Shown here: positions 46,778 to 55,078 of the stretch, piece after piece
Numbering within the stretch: position 1 is the stretch's first letter
Layout: the number at the start of each line of letters is the position of its first letter
Origin: an uncultured Porphyromonadaceae bacterium
GTDB taxonomy: Bacteria; Bacteroidota; Bacteroidia; Bacteroidales; Muribaculaceae
Reading direction: 5' to 3'
NCBI GenBank assembly: GCA_947176205.1
Contig: CAMWPX010000001.1
Location: 1-55,078 of the forward strand
Length of the DNA stretch: 55,078 bases
Made by a program: the position numbers and the translations under genes
The notes under the pieces: generated by a model
What the model was told of the DNA's origin: nothing
Seen by the model: only the letters and a program-made list of their open reading frames with translations
Databases searched by the model: none

Positions 46778-46827
46778 GATACAGGACTAACTATATACTT
46801 ACCGACATTTTCATTATATAAACAAAA

Positions 46828-46853
46828 GCGGTGCAACCATGAGGTCACACCGC
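46828..46853 (-). terminator. Terminator downstream of ino1
   Basis: GCGGTG..CACCGC stem followed by TTTTGTTT on the minus strand. Confidence 0.6.
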
Positions 46854-46901
46854 CGGGAGTTGAATTTAGTTGAAAGGGAGGTATCTTCTTATCAAATCAG
46901 A

Positions 46902-48209
46902 TTAGTCGATTTCTTCATCAGCCTCATAGCCGCCCATCTCACGAATAGCGTTTTTGAGCATCACATACTGCTGGAACAGATGATTTACTGGAACTTCACC
47001 CTTGGTATAGTCATGCATCGGGCTCTTGAGGAAGAAGCTCAGGAAGCGCTGTATGCCATGACGACCGGCACGTGCTGCAAGGTCGCTGAGCAATACGAGG
47101 TCAAGGCACAAAGGAGCTGCAAGGATAGAATCGCGGCAGAGGAAGTTAATCTTAATCTGCATCGGGTAACCCATCCAGCCGAAAATATCGATGTTATCCC
47201 AGCCTTCTTTATTGTCGTTGCGTGGGGGATAATAGTTGATACGCACCTTGTGGTAGTAATCGGTGTATAAATCAGGCTGCTCTTCCGGTACGAGGATTGA
47301 CTCGAGTGTAGAAAGTTTTGACACTTCTTTTGTACGGAAGTTAGCGGGCTCGTCAAGTACAAGACCGTCACGGTTTCCGAGGATATTGGTTGAGAACCAA
47401 CCGCTCAGACCAAGACAACGAGTACCGATTATGGGGGCGAAACCTGATTTTACAAGTGTCTGACCGGTCTTGAAGTCCTTACCTGCGATAGGCATTCCGG
47501 TCTTTTCGCTGAGTTCCCACATAGCAGGAATGTCAACTGTAGTATTGGGGGCGCCCATAATGAAGGGAGCACCTTCGCTCAATGCAGCGTAAGCGTAACA
47601 CATTGAGGGTGCGATATGCTCTTTGTCGTCGGCTTTCATAGCCTTTTCCAAATCAGCGAGCGTACCATGTACGTTTTCATCCACCGGTACATAAACCTCA
47701 GTAGAAGCAGCCCAAAGCACAACCACGCGATCCACACCATACTCTTTCTTGAAGTTACGGATATCCTCGCGAAGCTGTTCCACCATTTCCCAACGGGTTT
47801 TGCCCACCATTACATTATCACCGTCAAGGCGCTTTGCATAATTGTGGTCAAATGCGGCTTTCATGGGCTTGATAGCTTCAAGCTCATCCTTTACGGGATT
47901 GATATCTTTTTCTTTAAGAACTTCAGCGTTGATGGCGCTTTCATATGCATTGGCAGGATACACGTCCCATGCACCGAACACGATATCATCAAGTTTGGCA
48001 ATAGGCACAATATCTTCATATTTAAGATATTTCTTGTCAGCACCTTTACCCACGCGAATCTTGTCATATTGGGTCATAGAACCAACAGGCTTTGCAAGAT
48101 TCTTGCGAGCCATGAGGACACCGGTCATAAATGTAGATGTAACAGCACCGAGACCTACCACGAGGACTCCGAGCTTGCCATCAGCGGGTTTTACATTTGA
48201 GGCTTTCAT
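46902..48209 (-). CDS. ino1: myo-Inositol-1-phosphate synthase
   Basis: VGLGAV, LWAASTE, GKDFKTGQTLVKS, NILGNRDG, RDSILAAP, FLKSP. ATG at 48209. Confidence 0.95.
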   Translation of the reverse strand: MKASNVKPADGKLGVLVVGLGAVTSTFMTGVLMARKNLAKPVGSMTQYDKIRVGKGADKKYLKYEDIVPIAKLDDIVFGAWDVYPANAYESAINAEVLKEKDINPVKDELEAIKPMKAAFDHNYAKRLDGDNVMVGKTRWEMVEQLREDIRNFKKEYGVDRVVVLWAASTEVYVPVDENVHGTLADLEKAMKADDKEHIAPSMCYAYAALSEGAPFIMGAPNTTVDIPAMWELSEKTGMPIAGKDFKTGQTLVKSGFAPIIGTRCLGLSGWFSTNILGNRDGLVLDEPANFRTKEVSKLSTLESILVPEEQPDLYTDYYHKVRINYYPPRNDNKEGWDNIDIFGWMGYPMQIKINFLCRDSILAAPLCLDLVLLSDLAARAGRHGIQRFLSFFLKSPMHDYTKGEVPVNHLFQQYVMLKNAIREMGGYEADEEID

Positions 48210-48448
48210 AATCAACGAAAGAGAATAAAATGTGATATTAACTGTTTTTCGATACTAAAGTCAGCGCATAAAACTACACACTGACACACTTCATTACATT
48301 GTGCACGTAAAAGTACACCTAATTTTCCAAATGCAAAATTTTTTTACTTTAATATTTTATTATATTTGTTAACCGAGCATAATTTAATGCCGTATTTACC
48401 ACAAATGGGTTAATAAACATCAAAACTATTTAACGTTTGGTTAACTAA

Positions 48449-49156
48449 TCATAATGCCACATCAAGCACCTGAGAGAGTTGAGTAATGGCTGATGGATGA
48501 ATCACAGCATCCTCCTCGGCAGTCCAGCCCTTTCCTTTTAACCATGCCACCTGACATCCTATGCTCTGTGCCGGCAGTATATCCTTCTTATAGCTGTCGC
48601 CTATCACAAGCACCTGTCCGGCGGGTAATCCCAATGCCTTGACTCCCATACGGAATATTTCGGGGTCGGGCTTACGCACACCTACCACAGCACTCTCTAT
48701 CACCTCACGGAAATAATGCTGAAGATTAAAATCAGCAAGCACAGCACCGACATTGCCATAAAAATTAGACACAAGCACCAACGGATAGTGTTGATAAAGA
48801 GTCTCGATTACAGGTCGGGCTTCTTCCACACTCATCCGAGCCGCCTGATAACAGTAATCAGCCACTTCCGAGGCATATCCCCCTGCACTATCTGCAGTTA
48901 CCACACCGGCATCGACAAGAAAACCGAGTTCGATACGCATCTTTATCAACAGGAGATCATGAAAATTATGGTGAGGAAGAATATGCGGATGGCGTGCAAG
49001 CTCACGCTCGGCATACACGTACGCATCACGAAATATCTGTTTCTCCACCGGTACCCCGGCAGCTTGATAGCCATCCCAGATTATCTCGCTCCAATGCACT
49101 CCACGGCTATCTATGGTACCGCCGTAATCGAAAATAATACCTTTAATATCTGCCAT
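48449..49156 (-). CDS. HAD-family hydrolase
   Basis: FDYGGTID, VSN, KPDP, IGDS..D. ATG at 49156. Confidence 0.9.
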   Translation of the reverse strand: MADIKGIIFDYGGTIDSRGVHWSEIIWDGYQAAGVPVEKQIFRDAYVYAERELARHPHILPHHNFHDLLLIKMRIELGFLVDAGVVTADSAGGYASEVADYCYQAARMSVEEARPVIETLYQHYPLVLVSNFYGNVGAVLADFNLQHYFREVIESAVVGVRKPDPEIFRMGVKALGLPAGQVLVIGDSYKKDILPAQSIGCQVAWLKGKGWTAEEDAVIHPSAITQLSQVLDVAL

Positions 49157-50102
49157 CACGTAATTCTTTAGTAAACCGCTTACAGATGCGTTCGTGGCGC
49201 ACAACCATATAAATCAGAAGAGTATTGAGTACCGTGAGCTCAAAGGCGAAATACAGCCACGGCATACACAGAAATAGCGAAGTAAACAGAGCTATTGTAC
49301 GCCAGTTAAACGACAGGATATTGGTGAATTTCATCAACGGTAGACTCTGCCTGCGGAATGCTTCACGGAAATCCACGGGTATCTCCCCGGAGGGAAAACG
49401 TCTATGAAGCTCTTCGCGCAATTCCTGCATAGCCGGAGTAGTTTTCTCCTGATTCATAGTATAGTTAGTGTAGACAGTCATAGTAAGTTTCTTCCAAAAA
49501 TTACGTGACCATGACAACTCGACAAGCTGTCGGCGCAGATTGGCTGAAGATTCAAGCTCGCTACCGTCACGCCCTTTGAGGAAATAAAGATGAAACTGAC
49601 GGTAATAATCAGCCATAGCAGCCTGCTTGGCATGACATATACCGGTAATAACCGCTATAAGCCATATCAGCCACGGGCGAACCATGAAAAACTCCGACGT
49701 CGCATTCTCACGCATGCAGATGGCTATATAAATAGTAGCAAACCACACATCACCGCTAAGACCATCCAGTATACGCCCTATACGCGAATACTGATGCGTC
49801 ATGCGAGCGAGCTGTCCGTCGGCGCTGTCAAACGAATTAGCCCATATGAGGAGAAGCATGCCCGCTACATTAATCCATATATTGGAATAATAGAACGCTA
49901 TACCCGCTCCTATACCCAGAAATATGGAAGCTATGGTAATAGCATTGGGGGTGACCCCAAGGCGTTTGGCGGCACACGCCCATGCATAACCTATGGGACG
50001 ATAAAATGCCAAATCTATGCCTTCTTCGGTATCAAGTGATTTGAGCGAGGCACGATAATCAGAAGCGGGAGTATTTTGAATAGAATTATTTTCAACCGTC
50101 AT
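49143..50102 (-). CDS. CDP-alcohol phosphatidyltransferase
   Basis: TPNAIT, DSADGQLAR..GRILDGLSGD (DxxDGxxAR..GxxxD). Confidence 0.93.
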   Translation of the reverse strand: MTVENNSIQNTPASDYRASLKSLDTEEGIDLAFYRPIGYAWACAAKRLGVTPNAITIASIFLGIGAGIAFYYSNIWINVAGMLLLIWANSFDSADGQLARMTHQYSRIGRILDGLSGDVWFATIYIAICMRENATSEFFMVRPWLIWLIAVITGICHAKQAAMADYYRQFHLYFLKGRDGSELESSANLRRQLVELSWSRNFWKKLTMTVYTNYTMNQEKTTPAMQELREELHRRFPSGEIPVDFREAFRRQSLPLMKFTNILSFNWRTIALFTSLFLCMPWLYFAFELTVLNTLLIYMVVRHERICKRFTKELRDGRY

Positions 50103-50124: not shown

Positions 50125-50994
50125 TTATTTATCTTTATGGGCTTTGATGGCAGCAAGCACACAGCGTGCTATATGCGGGGCGGCTTCCACACGGCATGGA
50201 GCGAAACTGGGCCAATCGTTAAAATCAATAATCCGGATTACACCTTCCGGCGATACTATACAGTCACCTCCGTAAATTTTCACATCAAGTGCATCGGCGG
50301 CATCATGGCATATTTTCATAAGATGCACCTTATCAAACGCTATACCACGCGAATGACCGTTGATAGCTTCGTGACCATACTTGCTGTGACCTTCGTCAAA
50401 AGGATAAAACCAATAGAAAAAGGGTGTACCCTGTACACCATAGAATTTAATCAAATCACCGGGAAGATGACGATTGATGACAGCACGTTTGATTCCGCGT
50501 AAAAAATACTCCTGCAGCACTTCCTGCGCCTCTTCGACATGACGCACATAGCTTACATCCTCTTTATGCATGGCGTGGAAATCACCACGTTTTATCCAGC
50601 ACTGCGTAAATCCGGCATCGGTCATCACTTTCCGGATAGCTTGATCCGTATCTACAATCAGACTTTCCGGATAAGGGATATTGCTTCCGAGCAATATTCG
50701 GGTCATGCGCTCGCGCGTACAGTTCTCGATACCGTAGCCTGAATTTATCACAAGCACACCGGCATTTTCCATAGCCTGAAGACGCATAATCGACCGCTGC
50801 TCCCGACACATGTTCATTACCACCGACTCATGGACTTCTCCGGCTATCAATTGCTCTTCGCTGTAGATATTGACCACACAACCGCGTTTGCGAAGATGAT
50901 CAGCCACAAGATTGAAAATAGCAGCGTCATTGCCTATGTGATTAGGCGAAAACGCTCCGGCACGCATTATTCCCGCTATAGTTATATCAGCCAT
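50125..50994 (-). CDS. ATP-grasp-fold protein (ITPK1-like motifs) in the inositol cluster
   Basis: VINS..IENC.R, WIKR, HLPGDLIKFYGV, IYGGDCIV..IIDFNDWPSF. Confidence 0.6.
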   Translation of the reverse strand: MADITIAGIMRAGAFSPNHIGNDAAIFNLVADHLRKRGCVVNIYSEEQLIAGEVHESVVMNMCREQRSIMRLQAMENAGVLVINSGYGIENCTRERMTRILLGSNIPYPESLIVDTDQAIRKVMTDAGFTQCWIKRGDFHAMHKEDVSYVRHVEEAQEVLQEYFLRGIKRAVINRHLPGDLIKFYGVQGTPFFYWFYPFDEGHSKYGHEAINGHSRGIAFDKVHLMKICHDAADALDVKIYGGDCIVSPEGVIRIIDFNDWPSFAPCRVEAAPHIARCVLAAIKAHKDK

Positions 50995-51023: not shown

Positions 51024-51728
51024 TTATTTCTGTAATATAAATTTCTCTGCAGTAAGAATATCTGCTGCATGGTCCACATCTATTATCTTAGAAAAAGGAT
51101 ATGCTCGTAGCGAAAGACCTTCATCGACCAACGCACGCTGATAGTTACGCATGCGTGACACTCCGCCTTCTACACACCGCGCGAGAACTTCAAGGGCACG
51201 TGAATCAAGTCCGTAGATACCGCCCGATATATAACGGTCACTTCCTGATGGTGTGTCACGGAACGCCGTAATCTTCATCTGCGAATCGACATCTATATAA
51301 AGAGGCTTTTCATCATCAATGTACGACGTCACCCCCATATAACCGTCAGCTGAGCTATCGGACTCAAAAGCTTCGACATAACGGCGAAAATCATCCGCAC
51401 GGAATATAGTGTCGACCGTAGTGAGTACAAATTTCCCATCGGCGGCAAATTTTCTGCTCACTTCATAAAAACTATGCATGGAACTTGGCGTGGACTTAAC
51501 CACCAGATTAAACGGCACCGGAAACGAGAGTGATTCAAGATATTCACGAACCTGAGTCATCTGCTCATTAACTATAACGCTAAGTGACTGGGCATTGCAT
51601 TGGAGGAAAATATCTATCAGACGCTTTATCATCGGCTGACCGCAGAGCTGAACCAACGGTTTTGGCAGCGCCACTCCTTCCTGCACAAGTCGGGAGCCTT
51701 CGCCCGCAGCTATAATGGCATAATTCAT
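51024..51728 (-). CDS. Sugar-phosphate nucleotidyltransferase (possible inositol-phosphate cytidylyltransferase)
   Basis: IIAAGEGSRL..PKPL, VD, DVDH..D. ATG overlaps the pdxA stop. Confidence 0.85.
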   Translation of the reverse strand: MNYAIIAAGEGSRLVQEGVALPKPLVQLCGQPMIKRLIDIFLQCNAQSLSVIVNEQMTQVREYLESLSFPVPFNLVVKSTPSSMHSFYEVSRKFAADGKFVLTTVDTIFRADDFRRYVEAFESDSSADGYMGVTSYIDDEKPLYIDVDSQMKITAFRDTPSGSDRYISGGIYGLDSRALEVLARCVEGGVSRMRNYQRALVDEGLSLRAYPFSKIIDVDHAADILTAEKFILQK

Positions 51729-52828
51729 CACTCGTCAGATTTAGTCAGATCAAGCACTACATTGTCTTTCTTATTACGCTCCACATAATGCTTGGCAAGC
51801 GGGTTGCGGTAAGCTTCGTGATGCCGGCGACGGCTGCGATAGATATCTATAGCCTTATAAATAGCGCTACGCATCGATTCTTCCGATGCTTCCCACTTAC
51901 CGGCTATATCGTATCCGGTGCCATGGTCAGGTGATGTACGGACAAAAGGAAGCCCGGCGGTAAAATTGACTCCGGCATCCATAGCAAGAGTCTTGAATGG
52001 AATAAGTCCCTGGTCATGATACATAGCCAGTATACCGTCAAACCTGTTGTAAAGTCCGGCACCGAAAAATCCATCGGCGGCATACGGACCGAAACAATTG
52101 ATTTTTTCTTCCTGCGCCGCCTTGATGGCAGGTATTATTTGCTCCGTTTCCTCGGAACCCAAAAGTCCGTCCTCACCACTATGGGGATTAAGTGCGAGCA
52201 CCGCTATACGTGGATGAGGAAGAGAGAAGTCCCGCTCAAGCGAGTCACTGAACTGACGCAACTTTTCAAGCACGGCATCCTTACTTACACCCATAGCGAC
52301 CGAAGATATAGGAGTATGTATGGTGACAAGAGCCACGCGGATAGTATCATTGCATAATACCATCAATGCATTGTCACCGTTTTCACCAAGCGATGCCTGC
52401 AGATATTCCGTATGACCCGGAAACGGAAACTGCTCGCCATGAATGGAATGTTTGCTTATGGGAGCTGTTACGAGCACATCGATGTCACCGGCACGCAAGT
52501 CAGCCACAGCACGCTCAAGCGCAGCGAAAGCGGCTTCACCGGCTTCTTTCGATGACACTCCGGGTGTAGGACGCACCGATTCATCCACCACGTTGATTAT
52601 ATTAATCTGGTCAGCTCTGGCTGCATCTGCAGCTGCTATCTGGCACAAGGATATCGACGGCTGCTGAGCCTGCTTGAGATAATGGGCGGCTATCTTTGCC
52701 GAGCCATATATTATAGGGGTACAAAGTTCGAGCATGCGGCTGTCGTCAAGAGCTTTGAGTATAACCTCATAGCCTATGCCGTTGATGTCGCCGTGAGTAA
52801 TGCCGACTTTTATCTTTTTTTCTGACAT
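51728..52828 (-). CDS. pdxA: 4-hydroxythreonine-4-phosphate dehydrogenase
   Basis: GDINGIGYE, TAPISK, GHTE, LNPHSGE, AMYHDQGL, RTSPDHGT. Confidence 0.95.
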   Translation of the reverse strand: MSEKKIKVGITHGDINGIGYEVILKALDDSRMLELCTPIIYGSAKIAAHYLKQAQQPSISLCQIAAADAARADQINIINVVDESVRPTPGVSSKEAGEAAFAALERAVADLRAGDIDVLVTAPISKHSIHGEQFPFPGHTEYLQASLGENGDNALMVLCNDTIRVALVTIHTPISSVAMGVSKDAVLEKLRQFSDSLERDFSLPHPRIAVLALNPHSGEDGLLGSEETEQIIPAIKAAQEEKINCFGPYAADGFFGAGLYNRFDGILAMYHDQGLIPFKTLAMDAGVNFTAGLPFVRTSPDHGTGYDIAGKWEASEESMRSAIYKAIDIYRSRRRHHEAYRNPLAKHYVERNKKDNVVLDLTKSDE

Positions 52829-53057: not shown

Positions 53058-53291
53058 ATGAAAGATATTGACCAATCCATAGCTAAAATGTTGCGGGAAA
53101 TAAGAGAATCTCGCAAAATATCTCAAGAGACCCTATCGTTTGATTCTAATCTTCATAGAACCTATATAAGTCAATTAGAGCGAGGATTAAAATCCGTCAC
53201 CGTTAAAACCCTTTTGAAGATTACCACTGCTTTAGACATTGAAATTGATGATTTTATTAAATTAGTTAATGATGACCGTAAAACACTATAA
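53058..53291 (+). CDS. XRE-family HTH controller (C) protein
   Basis: LREIRESRKISQETLS..LHRTYISQLERG. Lies directly upstream of the putative REase. Confidence 0.85.
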   Translation: MKDIDQSIAKMLREIRESRKISQETLSFDSNLHRTYISQLERGLKSVTVKTLLKITTALDIEIDDFIKLVNDDRKTL

Positions 53292-54012
53292 TCTTACCGA
53301 AGAAAACGAGAATCGCCTATTGACTGGACTGAAAGCTGCTGTGTCCATTCCGATTATTGACAGTATAGAAGACTTTATTTGGGAAAGTATATTCTGTTAT
53401 ATGAAGCAAATACCATATATTGACCCATTCAAAAATACAAGAAGTAAAAAATTATATGACATTACTGATTCTGAAAATAACATCGGATGGTCTGCAAAGG
53501 CTTTACAATGGTCATTGACTCCTGGAAGTGAATTTGAAATAGTAATCCAAAGGGCAGATGTTTTCAAAAAAGCTGAAAGTTTAGGATTCAATAATCTGAA
53601 TATTGATTCAGACCCTAATATAATTGGAGCTGCGCTATTGAAACATTGGCACTTGAAAATTAATGAAGATGCCAAGAAACAGAATGTTAAGGATAAACGA
53701 ATATGTATTCTTCTAAAAAATAAAGCTTGTACGAAATTTGCTTACATAGAAGAAGACATAGCAATTTATGATACCGATGAACTAGAATGGATGTGGTCTG
53801 ATTCAGATAAGACCGGGCTTAAAGGAATTCGTAAAACCGATGGCTTTTGCGTATACAAGTGGTACCATAATCAAACACAATTCTTCGAGAGGTTCAAATT
53901 TGAACAATCATCTAAAATTTATAATATCGACTTGCACCGCTTGAGCTTAAATCATTTTATAGATTTGATACACAAAGAATTGAGTGAAGATGAAAATAAT
54001 TTATGCTGTTGA
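53269..54012 (+). CDS. Putative type II restriction endonuclease
   Basis: Sits between the C gene and a convergent 5mC MTase. E..(LY)D..GWSAK resembles a PD-(D/E)xK variant with SxK. Confidence 0.6.
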   Translation: MMTVKHYNLTEENENRLLTGLKAAVSIPIIDSIEDFIWESIFCYMKQIPYIDPFKNTRSKKLYDITDSENNIGWSAKALQWSLTPGSEFEIVIQRADVFKKAESLGFNNLNIDSDPNIIGAALLKHWHLKINEDAKKQNVKDKRICILLKNKACTKFAYIEEDIAIYDTDELEWMWSDSDKTGLKGIRKTDGFCVYKWYHNQTQFFERFKFEQSSKIYNIDLHRLSLNHFIDLIHKELSEDENNLCC

Positions 54013-55078
54013 AAAGACTTGTTATTTCCCAATAAGTCTTTTATAACATTAGCCATAGTGTACATAATTAACGACGGAACAGCATTACCGATTTGAGCTG
54101 CTTTCTCTATATAAGTCCCCGAAAAAACAAAATCATCTGTAAAACATTGCAATCTGGCAGCTTCCCTTATTGTTATCAAACGAGCATTCTTTGGATGACC
54201 ATATCTACCCGAACCAGGATGAAAACACCACCGAGTAATAGTCTGAGCCACATTATCAAAATCAAGGCGCCCATATGCTCCACTATATCCTCCTTTAGGT
54301 CTTATTTCCGGTGGAAGATCCTTGATTCCCTGTCCCGCAGAAAGAGAACGCATCCGCTCTAACTGAACACCTTTCAATTCTCGTGTTATATGGTCGTGCA
54401 ACAACCCGGAATCGCGCCTCATAAATCTCTGATAATCATTGACTGCCGGTTTATCATATTCCATAACCAAAGCTCCTTCCCCATTCTCTAATTCAGGCAA
54501 ATCACATATAGCATCCCAAGCTGAAACATAAGTCTTGTTTATACTAAATAGACTTTCGGCATTTGCTTTCTGATGTGTCGGTTCTGGGAAATAAGGTTTT
54601 TTACCATTTCGAGTTGCTAAGAAAAAACAACGGGAACGTCTTTGGGGAACTCCGTAATCTGGGGCAAATAAAACTTTTACTGCAACCATATACCCGAGTT
54701 CTTCCAAATGTAAAACAATTTGTCTTCTTATCTCTCCATTAAAAGCATTATAAATTTCTGCCACATTTTCAATAACAACAATCTTCGGCAGAAATTCATC
54801 GACAAAACGAATATAATCTTTGTATAACTGATTGCGGGAATCTTCAAGAAATCGATATACAGAAGGAACATTTTTAGAAAATCCCTGACAAGGTGGTCCG
54901 CCCACCATACAATCCAACTCCCCCTTATCCAATTTCAAATCTTTTCTGATATCCGCCGCATTGAAGTCTCTGATATCTCCTTTATATGTTTTTGCATCAG
55001 GGTGATTCAATTGAAAGGTTTTGATGGCAGGTTCCCAAATATCAAGACCACCTATTATATCAAAACCAGCCTTATACC
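53952..55078 (-). CDS. DNA (cytosine-5)-methyltransferase, 5' end outside window
   Basis: GGPPCQGFS, ENV, YGVPQRRSR, REAARLQ, QIGNAVP. The frame stays open upstream of 55010 (..KAGFDIIGGLDIW..) to the window edge. Confidence 0.95.
   Translation of the reverse strand, partial: YKAGFDIIGGLDIWEPAIKTFQLNHPDAKTYKGDIRDFNAADIRKDLKLDKGELDCMVGGPPCQGFSKNVPSVYRFLEDSRNQLYKDYIRFVDEFLPKIVVIENVAEIYNAFNGEIRRQIVLHLEELGYMVAVKVLFAPDYGVPQRRSRCFFLATRNGKKPYFPEPTHQKANAESLFSINKTYVSAWDAICDLPELENGEGALVMEYDKPAVNDYQRFMRRDSGLLHDHITRELKGVQLERMRSLSAGQGIKDLPPEIRPKGGYSGAYGRLDFDNVAQTITRWCFHPGSGRYGHPKNARLITIREAARLQCFTDDFVFSGTYIEKAAQIGNAVPSLIMYTMANVIKDLLGNNKSFQQHKLFSSSLNSLCIKSIK

Follow-up and report, generated by a model that had tools for sequence, protein, structure and literature searches.

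Inositol-phosphate kinases of the ATP-grasp fold have been described from eukaryotes and Asgard archaea; according to the available part of that work, ITPK1 phosphorylates Ins3P, and Lokiarchaeal ITPKs flank genes for myo-inositol-phosphate synthase, MIPS (PMC6900528). ITPK1 is called a 1-kinase in PDB titles. In Bacteroidota, a PIP synthase of the BT_1523 type uses MIP directly, as stated in the available sections of PMC9246714. The same sections present an alternative inositol-lipid cluster of Bacteroidota, found in Bacteroides (Phocaeicola) vulgatus and Prevotella, as putative, with its PI-DAG/PI-DHC output unconfirmed there, and propose that it works without a PIP intermediate; they give the B. 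vulgatus gene tags BVU_RS13095, RS13105 and RS13115 and report PI-DHC in B. vulgatus and P. veroralis (PMC9246714). Inositol lipids of P. vulgatus, of most Prevotella and of Muribaculaceae are predicted to be made by this alternative cluster.

The locus considered here is part of a window of 55,078 nucleotides, i.e., the whole stretch of DNA that was analysed. On its minus strand, PdxA, an NTP transferase, an ATP-grasp gene, a CDP-alcohol phosphotransferase, a HAD hydrolase and MIPS follow each other in this order:

51728..52828, minus strand: PdxA, the upstream neighbour
51024-51731, minus strand: NTP transferase (Pfam, PF00483), whose likely start, ATG at 51728, overlaps the stop codon of PdxA
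50125..50994, minus strand: ATP-grasp protein P0001, 289 aa, one open frame; candidate inositol-phosphate kinase
50587..50598, minus strand: W133-I-K135-R motif, K135 being the Lys common to every ATP-grasp group compared
50440..50448, minus strand: K183-F-Y185, with K183 aligned to human ITPK1 K199 and Arg at this place in RimK/LysX
50203..50226, minus strand: D257-F-N259-D-W-P-S-F264 loop, matching N-D-F-P-[SG]-F of MIPS-linked archaeal-type ITPK homologs
49143..50102, minus strand: CDP-alcohol phosphotransferase (Pfam, PF01066), the motif's fourth Asp not at the canonical +4
48449..49156, minus strand: HAD hydrolase, likely ATG at 49156; motif I is D-Y-G-G-T-I-D, with no second Asp at +2
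46902..48215, minus strand: MIPS (Pfam, PF07994 and PF01658), source of Ins3P
46827..46854, minus strand: terminator-like hairpin 3' of MIPS, a consensus match only

The ATP-grasp gene is separated from its flanking genes by 29 and 22 nt, the HAD frame probably overlaps that of the CDP-alcohol transferase, and the gap between HAD and MIPS is 233 nt. The initial annotation had placed a 289-aa frame between a nucleotidyltransferase and a CDP-alcohol transferase, and the PF00483 and PF01066 matches on either side bear this out. The role of K199 in ITPK1, where it contacts the inositol phosphate, is that given in the available part of PMC6900528. Seven terminator-like sites were found versus 5.0 expected, and the counts of promoters and of terminators were at chance level. 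The end of the window (53269-55078) holds, as read from the sequence, one ORF that resembles DNA cytosine methyltransferases and another, of 247 aa, that looks divergent; they are probably a restriction-modification pair.

With an NTP transferase, a CDP-alcohol transferase and a HAD near MIPS and without BT_1523, the locus fits the cluster of PMC9246714; a BT_1523-type PIP synthase was not found in the window's own genome, which is 92.5% complete. The three B. vulgatus tags given in that paper leave out two genes, presumably RS13100 and RS13110. In B. finegoldii, the order is NTP transferase, a hypothetical protein belonging to the ATP-grasp family, CDP-alcohol transferase, an LPG-synthase-like gene and HAD. 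Since the ATP-grasp family and LPG-synthase-like genes of B. finegoldii occupy the skipped slots, RS13100 is probably the B. vulgatus ortholog of the ATP-grasp gene, which may have been drawn without a label in Fig. 6b of PMC9246714. The terms 'ATP-grasp' and 'RS13100' have zero occurrences in the text and supplements searched of that paper, and full-text literature searching, from which most subscription papers were missing, found no paper naming the family, whose displayed members are almost all called 'hypothetical protein'. The ATP-grasp gene is real, conserved and unannotated, and it is absent from the published model of the putative pathway.

The family comprises 5761 clusters at 90% and 1027 representatives at 50% identity, and the closest named relatives of P0001 are mainly from Muribaculaceae and other Bacteroidales. 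The motifs quoted in the initial annotation, i.e., WIKR (133-136), HLPGDLIKFYGV (176-187) and IYGGDCIV...IIDFNDWPSF (240-264), are all present in P0001 as given there. For residue counts, 116 relatives that are 33-86% identical to P0001 were aligned. W133, K135, G179, F184, Y185, G242, G243, N259 and P262 are invariant in this alignment, K183 is kept in 115 and D257 in 114 of the 116 sequences, and because of this conservation throughout the family, the motifs are not due to chance. An AlphaFold2 model of P0001 (pLDDT 96.5) matches ATP-grasp enzymes along its entire length in a fold search.

The gene is tightly linked to the other genes of the cluster. Among the best 80 of 584 GTDB loci, some of which are broken by contig ends, the CDP-alcohol transferase was found in 80, HAD in 76, NTP transferase in 74 and MIPS in 53, and MIPS was located elsewhere in the genome in 23 of 24 genomes chosen for its absence from the locus. 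A set of 201 Bacteroidales genomes contains the ATP-grasp gene in 27, the transferase in 31 and MIPS in 33 cases, and all 27 ATP-grasp carriers also have the transferase and MIPS. Four Bacteroidales genomes contain a related transferase without the ATP-grasp gene; three of these four loci have no adjoining NTP transferase and HAD, the other is a truncated NTP-transferase fusion, and no substitute kinase was detected among the scanned neighbours of the four transferases. Phylum-wide, 24 of 401 sampled genomes carry the ATP-grasp gene, and of 20 regions with more distant copies of it, 19 contain the transferase, 18 the NTP transferase, 17 HAD and 16 MIPS. PdxA is upstream in 64 of the 80 close loci (best 80 of 584) versus one of the 20 distant regions, and is probably not a member of the pathway. 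As kin are not independent, these co-occurrence counts show linkage and are not a statistical test. Gene fusions were also encountered: an N-terminal NTP transferase is present on six of the 13 ATP-grasp representatives scanned, and 19 long homologs include three NTP transferase/ATP-grasp/CDP-alcohol transferase, 11 NTP transferase/ATP-grasp and four ATP-grasp/CDP-alcohol transferase fusions and one other protein. Two NTP-transferase fusions were found in genomes. The tight linkage and the fusion to cluster genes substantiate the earlier placement of the gene within an inositol-lipid operon, and the enzyme belongs to the core of the CDP-inositol-type lipid cluster of Bacteroidota.

Two of its neighbours have unusual motifs. 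In homologs of the CDP-alcohol transferase, the canonical fourth position holds Asp in one and Gly in 97 of 100 sequences, and Asp or Asn is found one position later in 98. The non-canonical motifs of the transferase and HAD are conserved features of the cluster, and because of them the putative roles of these two proteins are uncertain as well.

Several variants of the cluster were observed. Orphan transferase paralogs (D-C-x-D-G-Q-L-A-R; loci L290, L291, L292 and L294) occur without NTP transferase or ATP-grasp genes, three of them adjoining acyltransferase genes. At L293:620-1897 (genome G556), an NTP transferase and a truncated transferase form one frame, the ATP-grasp gene is absent and MIPS was not found; this fusion is either a deletion or an assembly error. 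At L295 (G515:C8), in a genome of the window's family, the ATP-grasp gene is separated from the transferase by an insertion of PgpA, GtrA, PIP-synthase-like and PAP2 genes, i.e., genes of the BT-type route. Tandem ATP-grasp pairs are present in four of 24 carriers (G380:C1, G100:C51, G172:C4 and G376:C9; L110, L113), and G100 has two whole clusters. In distant Bacteroidota, the clusters (L110-L117, L119-L121 and L128) are extended by genes for a class III aminotransferase and an inositol-2-dehydrogenase-like protein in 12 of 20 regions, often together with MlaEFD and an LPG-synthase-like gene, and possibly represent an amino-inositol lipid pathway. Genes for DUF4833 and DUF5686 (L123:2521-3087 and L123:8569-11163) recur at cluster edges in several families.

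The initial annotation considered the protein to be an ITPK1-like kinase. As regards the ATP-grasp fold, this was correct: the model of P0001 matches 2QB5 with Z 20.2 and an rmsd of 3.0 over 261 aligned residues. The structure check it had proposed, ITPK1 versus RimK/LysX, went slightly the other way, with Z values of 22.0-22.4 for RimK and 21.3-21.9 for ArgX/LysX versus 20.2 for human, 19.1 for plant and 17.7 for Entamoeba ITPK1. The matches listed by Foldseek include no ITPK and are all ligases. As a test of kinase versus ligase, the fold search did not discriminate, with a slight lean to the ligases. When the PDB was searched with a family profile, the ligase PsnB came first (7drm, E 4e-7), followed by six ITPK sequences (E 4e-4 to 2.5e-3) and then by ligases, the ITPK structures ranking above ArgX/LysX (E 0.04-0.39). 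P0001 itself gave no match below E 0.19 in a phmmer search of the PDB, and no Pfam family, PF05770 included, at E<=1. PF05770 matches at E<=0.1 in four of the 116 family members (best 0.0064) and was not found in the window's own genome; one archaeal-type ITPK control likewise remained below the PF05770 cut-off. With the ligase models TIGR00768 and TIGR02144, P0001 scored 27.9 and 26.3 bits versus cut-offs of 143.4 and 275.6, respectively.

The ITPK controls were gathered by a motif scan, and 21 of the 22 scanned matched PF05770. Their profile retrieves ITPK structures only, many of the controls are ~300 aa long and adjoin MIPS like the Lokiarchaeal pairs of PMC6900528, and the archaeal-type ones are presumably from Asgard archaea. 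A second, RimK-like ATP-grasp gene of ~270 aa is found divergent beside an archaeal-type ITPK-MIPS-ITPK block (L190:4048-4863, L186:1874-2680, L130 and L191). When the profile was split, residues 1-235 of P0001 gave median scores of 11.5 and 15 bits with RimK/LysX versus 2.9 bits or less with ITPKs, and the ITPK signal was confined to the last 54 residues (236-289), the region used to select the controls. The likeness to ITPKs is partial: P0001 has no PF05770 match and, by profile score, resembles them in these 54 residues only. Archaeal-type ITPKs ranked above RimK with the whole profile, but this ranking was given no weight, as a C-terminal motif had served to choose the controls and the advantage was gone without that part. 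Scores from hhalign (ITPK set 119.7, RimK/LysX set 93.9, RimK alone 95.3, single ITPK subsets 71-84) were dropped as evidence because they depend on alignment depth. In a tree made by a quick method from 48 rows (12 family, 16 ITPK, 12 RimK/LysX, five Ddl and three other sequences), the family forms a long-branched clade of its own outside the ITPK clade (support 86), at an open fork; an AU test on this tree (p-AU 0.51 for family plus ITPK and 0.18 for family plus RimK/LysX) rejected neither sister. On the tests run, the ATP-grasp protein represents its own family rather than an established member of the ITPKs.

Several residues are of the kinase type. The K183 column, which played no part in choosing the ITPK controls, holds Lys in 115 of 116 family members and in 16 of 16 ITPK rows, and Arg in 12 of 12 RimK/LysX rows. 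The DxNxWPSF loop, equivalent to the D295/N297/G301 region of ITPKs, is nearly invariant in the family (N259 and P262 in 116, D257 in 114, F264 in 113 and S263 in 111 of 116), with W in place of the ITPK F at position 261. The contrast between D-x-N in P0001 and the E-x-N of RimK/LysX/Ddl, which the initial annotation had made for RimK-type ligases, holds across the family: the RimK/LysX controls have E-x-N and D-x-R in 25 of 25 sequences, and the ATP-grasp family has D-x-N and K instead. The G[TS][QW]G loop is present in 23 of 25 RimK/LysX sequences, in none of 34 ITPKs and in none of the 116 family members. Other ITPK residues have been lost: according to a mapping by profile alignment rather than by superposition, the equivalent of K59 is M62 in 113 of 116 members, that of H167 is E145, which is variable across the family, and that of R212 is Y197 in 90 of 116; R212 is likewise absent from T. 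cruzi ITPK1. Thus, the proposed likeness to ITPK1 stands for the K199-equivalent Lys, the DxN loop and the missing G[TS][QW]G loop, but not for K59, H167 and R212. From these residues, kinase activity is likely, and the protein probably acts in the manner of inositol-phosphate kinases, although its pocket would be less basic.

A clue to the substrate comes from genomes without MIPS. In genome G370, which is 100% complete, the cluster is present, MIPS is absent from the genome and a PfkB gene occupies the slot after HAD. Among 81 genomes from the family of G370, f19, six have the ATP-grasp gene; MIPS is found in none of these six, and PfkB directly follows HAD in all six, although these syntenic loci probably go back to one event. 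The f19 PfkB has myo-inositol kinase TM0415 as its best PDB match (E 4e-26) and keeps the acceptor residues D11, N78, L116, Q141 and R145, but has Gln at the place of S89 and lacks the PPi arginines. In the available part of PMC5931981, TM0415 uses PPi and yields Ins1P, its relative MI3K_TK uses ATP and yields Ins3P, and a homolog in which S89 is replaced by Gln fails to form Ins1P. Because TM0415 itself makes Ins1P, the product of the f19 PfkB has to be deduced from context and from the S89-to-Gln change. PfkB is present in eight of the 81 f19 genomes, i.e., in the six ATP-grasp carriers and in G426 and G476, both of which have a BT_1523-type PIP synthase and lack the ATP-grasp gene and MIPS. 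The remaining three f19 genomes with a PIP synthase have no PfkB and, as predicted beforehand, MIPS is present in all three. In a class-wide sample, PfkB was detected in 11 of 401 genomes, four with the ATP-grasp gene and seven with PIP synthase, and ten of these 11 also have MIPS. The PfkB subfamily (loci L123:3114-4049, L283-L287, L288:6710-7567 and L289:6818-7690, related to TM0415/MI3K) is found only in genomes with either inositol-lipid route and stands in for MIPS in eight; outside f19, its neighbours show no consistent inositol context, and MFS transporters adjoin it in two of ten cases. The subfamily is a candidate for a myo-inositol 3-kinase that serves salvage in Bacteroidota. MIP being the direct substrate of PIP synthase, the product supplied by PfkB is most likely Ins3P, and the retention of the ATP-grasp enzyme beside it argues against a free-inositol kinase and places the enzyme after Ins3P. 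Of the functions envisaged in the initial annotation, inositol salvage is disfavoured, as the neighbouring PfkB takes over that function where MIPS is missing, and the production of inositol polyphosphates is disfavoured by the lost K59, H167 and R212 equivalents.

The product of MIPS is D-Ins3P, the head group of PI is linked via D-1, and in the PIP-synthase route it is the unsubstituted 1-OH of Ins3P that reacts. If the inositol is activated instead, this 1-OH has to be phosphorylated beforehand for the same lipid to be obtained, hence the proposed conversion of Ins3P to Ins(1,3)P2. In such a route, for which kinase chemistry, Ins3P as the substrate, position 1, the order of the steps and the lipid product are presumed, Ins3P would be provided by MIPS, or by the PfkB inositol kinase where MIPS is absent. 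The ATP-grasp enzyme would phosphorylate the 1-OH of D-myo-inositol 3-phosphate to yield Ins(1,3)P2, and activation of the 1-phosphate thus added, by the NTP transferase, would give a CDP-inositol phosphate from which the CDP-alcohol transferase would move inositol phosphate onto diacylglycerol or dihydroceramide. HAD would take off the 3-phosphate, either before or after transfer to the lipid. The likely purpose would be to attach the lipid through D-1, as is usual for PI; activating Ins3P directly could not give this linkage. We give even chances to the view that the enzyme works downstream of Ins3P, probably as a 1-kinase of Ins3P that feeds the synthesis of CDP-inositol-phosphate, and is not a salvage or polyphosphate kinase. 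It counts against this route that Rhodothermus reportedly makes an inositol lipid via IPCT/BEPIS with no mention of such a kinase, as cited in the available part of PMC4587543, and that the pathway is proposed in PMC9246714 to do without a PIP intermediate.

The same kinase-type residues would equally suit a late kinase that acts on CDP-inositol or on the finished lipid and leaves a phosphorylated head group, i.e., a PIP-type lipid. Such a kinase would fit the MIPS/PfkB pattern and the fusions to the membrane transferase (four plus three of the 19 long homologs). However, fusions to the NTP transferase are commoner (11 plus three of the 19), the HAD conserved in the operon (76 of the best 80 loci of 584) suggests removal of a phosphate, and PI-DHC was reported in B. 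vulgatus and P. veroralis with PIP unmentioned in the available sections (PMC9246714), which makes a late kinase unlikely. Alternatively, HAD or an inositol monophosphatase might strip Ins3P, and the ATP-grasp enzyme might then make Ins1P as a free myo-inositol 1-kinase, which would also allow salvage. The loss of the phosphate-contacting K59, H167 and R212 equivalents agrees with a free-inositol substrate, five of five genomes tested carry a gene of the inositol monophosphatase family, and the inositol-dehydrogenase-like and aminotransferase genes in 12 of the 20 distant regions could act on a free cyclitol. Yet, this kinase would be redundant or futile beside the operon PfkB in six of six MIPS-less carriers, and MIPS is kept in 27 of 27 Bacteroidales carriers; we regard this possibility as decidedly unlikely.

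The fold, nearest to RimK/LysX/Ddl, would rather suggest a ligase that forms an amide or ester and thereby modifies the head group or the lipid, e.g., on an aminocyclitol, and so would the weak N-terminal matches to the MptN, RimK and LysX models, the position of PsnB at the head of the PDB profile search and the aminotransferase in 12 of the 20 distant regions. A ligase is nevertheless quite unlikely, as the family has neither E-x-N nor D-x-R nor the G[TS][QW]G loop, the TIGR00768 score (27.9 bits) is far from the cut-off (143.4), and an aminotransferase match was found in none of the best 80 (of 584) close loci and none of the six f19 loci. Finally, soluble inositol polyphosphates might be made from Ins3P, as by ITPK1 and the Lokiarchaeal kinases. 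The loop is nearly identical to that of MIPS-linked archaeal-type ITPK homologs, Atlas gives an Asgard PF05770 cluster at 0.97, and the tandem copies in four of 24 carriers recall the Lokiarchaeal pairs. But with Met for K59 in 113 of 116 members, a variable H167 and Tyr for R212 in 90 of 116, with fusions of the family to lipid-pathway enzymes, and with archaeal-type control loci in which queries for the NTP transferase, the CDP-alcohol transferase and HAD found nothing, this appears highly improbable.

If an Ins3P 1-kinase is indeed required and has been overlooked, this would explain a possible failure to rebuild the pathway with just the three genes named so far, and the scheme would change to include a phosphorylated intermediate after all; four soluble proteins with defined substrates would then allow the pathway to be tested. 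Gut Bacteroidales would then be producers of an inositol bisphosphate. Tentatively, and with somewhat less than even confidence, we propose that P0001 represents the first bacterial ATP-grasp inositol-phosphate kinase family, with the catalytic loop of the ITPKs of archaea and eukaryotes, and that it serves a third route to PI and inositol sphingolipids, leading from Ins3P via Ins(1,3)P2 and CDP-inositol-3-phosphate to the lipid. Such a bacterial family, a candidate bacterial sister of ITPK1, would bear on the origin of ITPK1 chemistry. The PfkB is a candidate for the inositol kinase needed by MIPS-less Bacteroidota; no candidate for an inositol kinase had been found in Tannerella forsythia, according to the available part of PMC4587543.

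Compared with known systems, P0001 scores best with the RimK/LysX/ArgX ligases (TIGR00768; 4IWX, 7QYS, 3VPB), e.g., Z 22.4 and an rmsd of 2.9 over 253 aligned residues for 7QYS; it is similar to them in size and nearer to them in the N-terminal domain, but lacks E-x-N, D-x-R and G[TS][QW]G and stays far under the family cut-off. The IPCT/BEPIS CDP-inositol route of Rhodothermus marinus (Jorge et al. 2015) likewise combines MIPS, a nucleotidyltransferase and a CDP-alcohol transferase and activates the inositol rather than the lipid, but, as cited in the available parts of PMC4587543 and PMC9246714, has no ATP-grasp step. The best PDB matches of the window's NTP transferase are sugar-1-phosphate nucleotidyltransferases, with no IPCT listed among those at E<=1e-5, and its score with NF041135 (40.6 bits) is below those with the GlmU and RmlA models. 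The cluster of PMC9246714, as far as its available sections show, shares the NTP transferase, CDP-alcohol transferase, HAD and MIPS with the window, the genome of which is without a BT_1523-type PIP synthase. With ITPK1/LcIK (PF05770; 2QB5, 2ODT, 1Z2N, 7PUP, 8OXE; available part of PMC6900528), the family shares the ATP-grasp fold, the K199 equivalent, the D-x-N-x-[FW]-P-[SG]-[FY] loop and the linkage to MIPS. Unlike ITPKs, it has no PF05770 or PF17927 match and has lost the K59, H167 and R212 equivalents, whilst it possesses an invariant set of its own (R11, S16, D23, M62, D146 and H176), forms a separate clade and is found fused to lipid-pathway enzymes.
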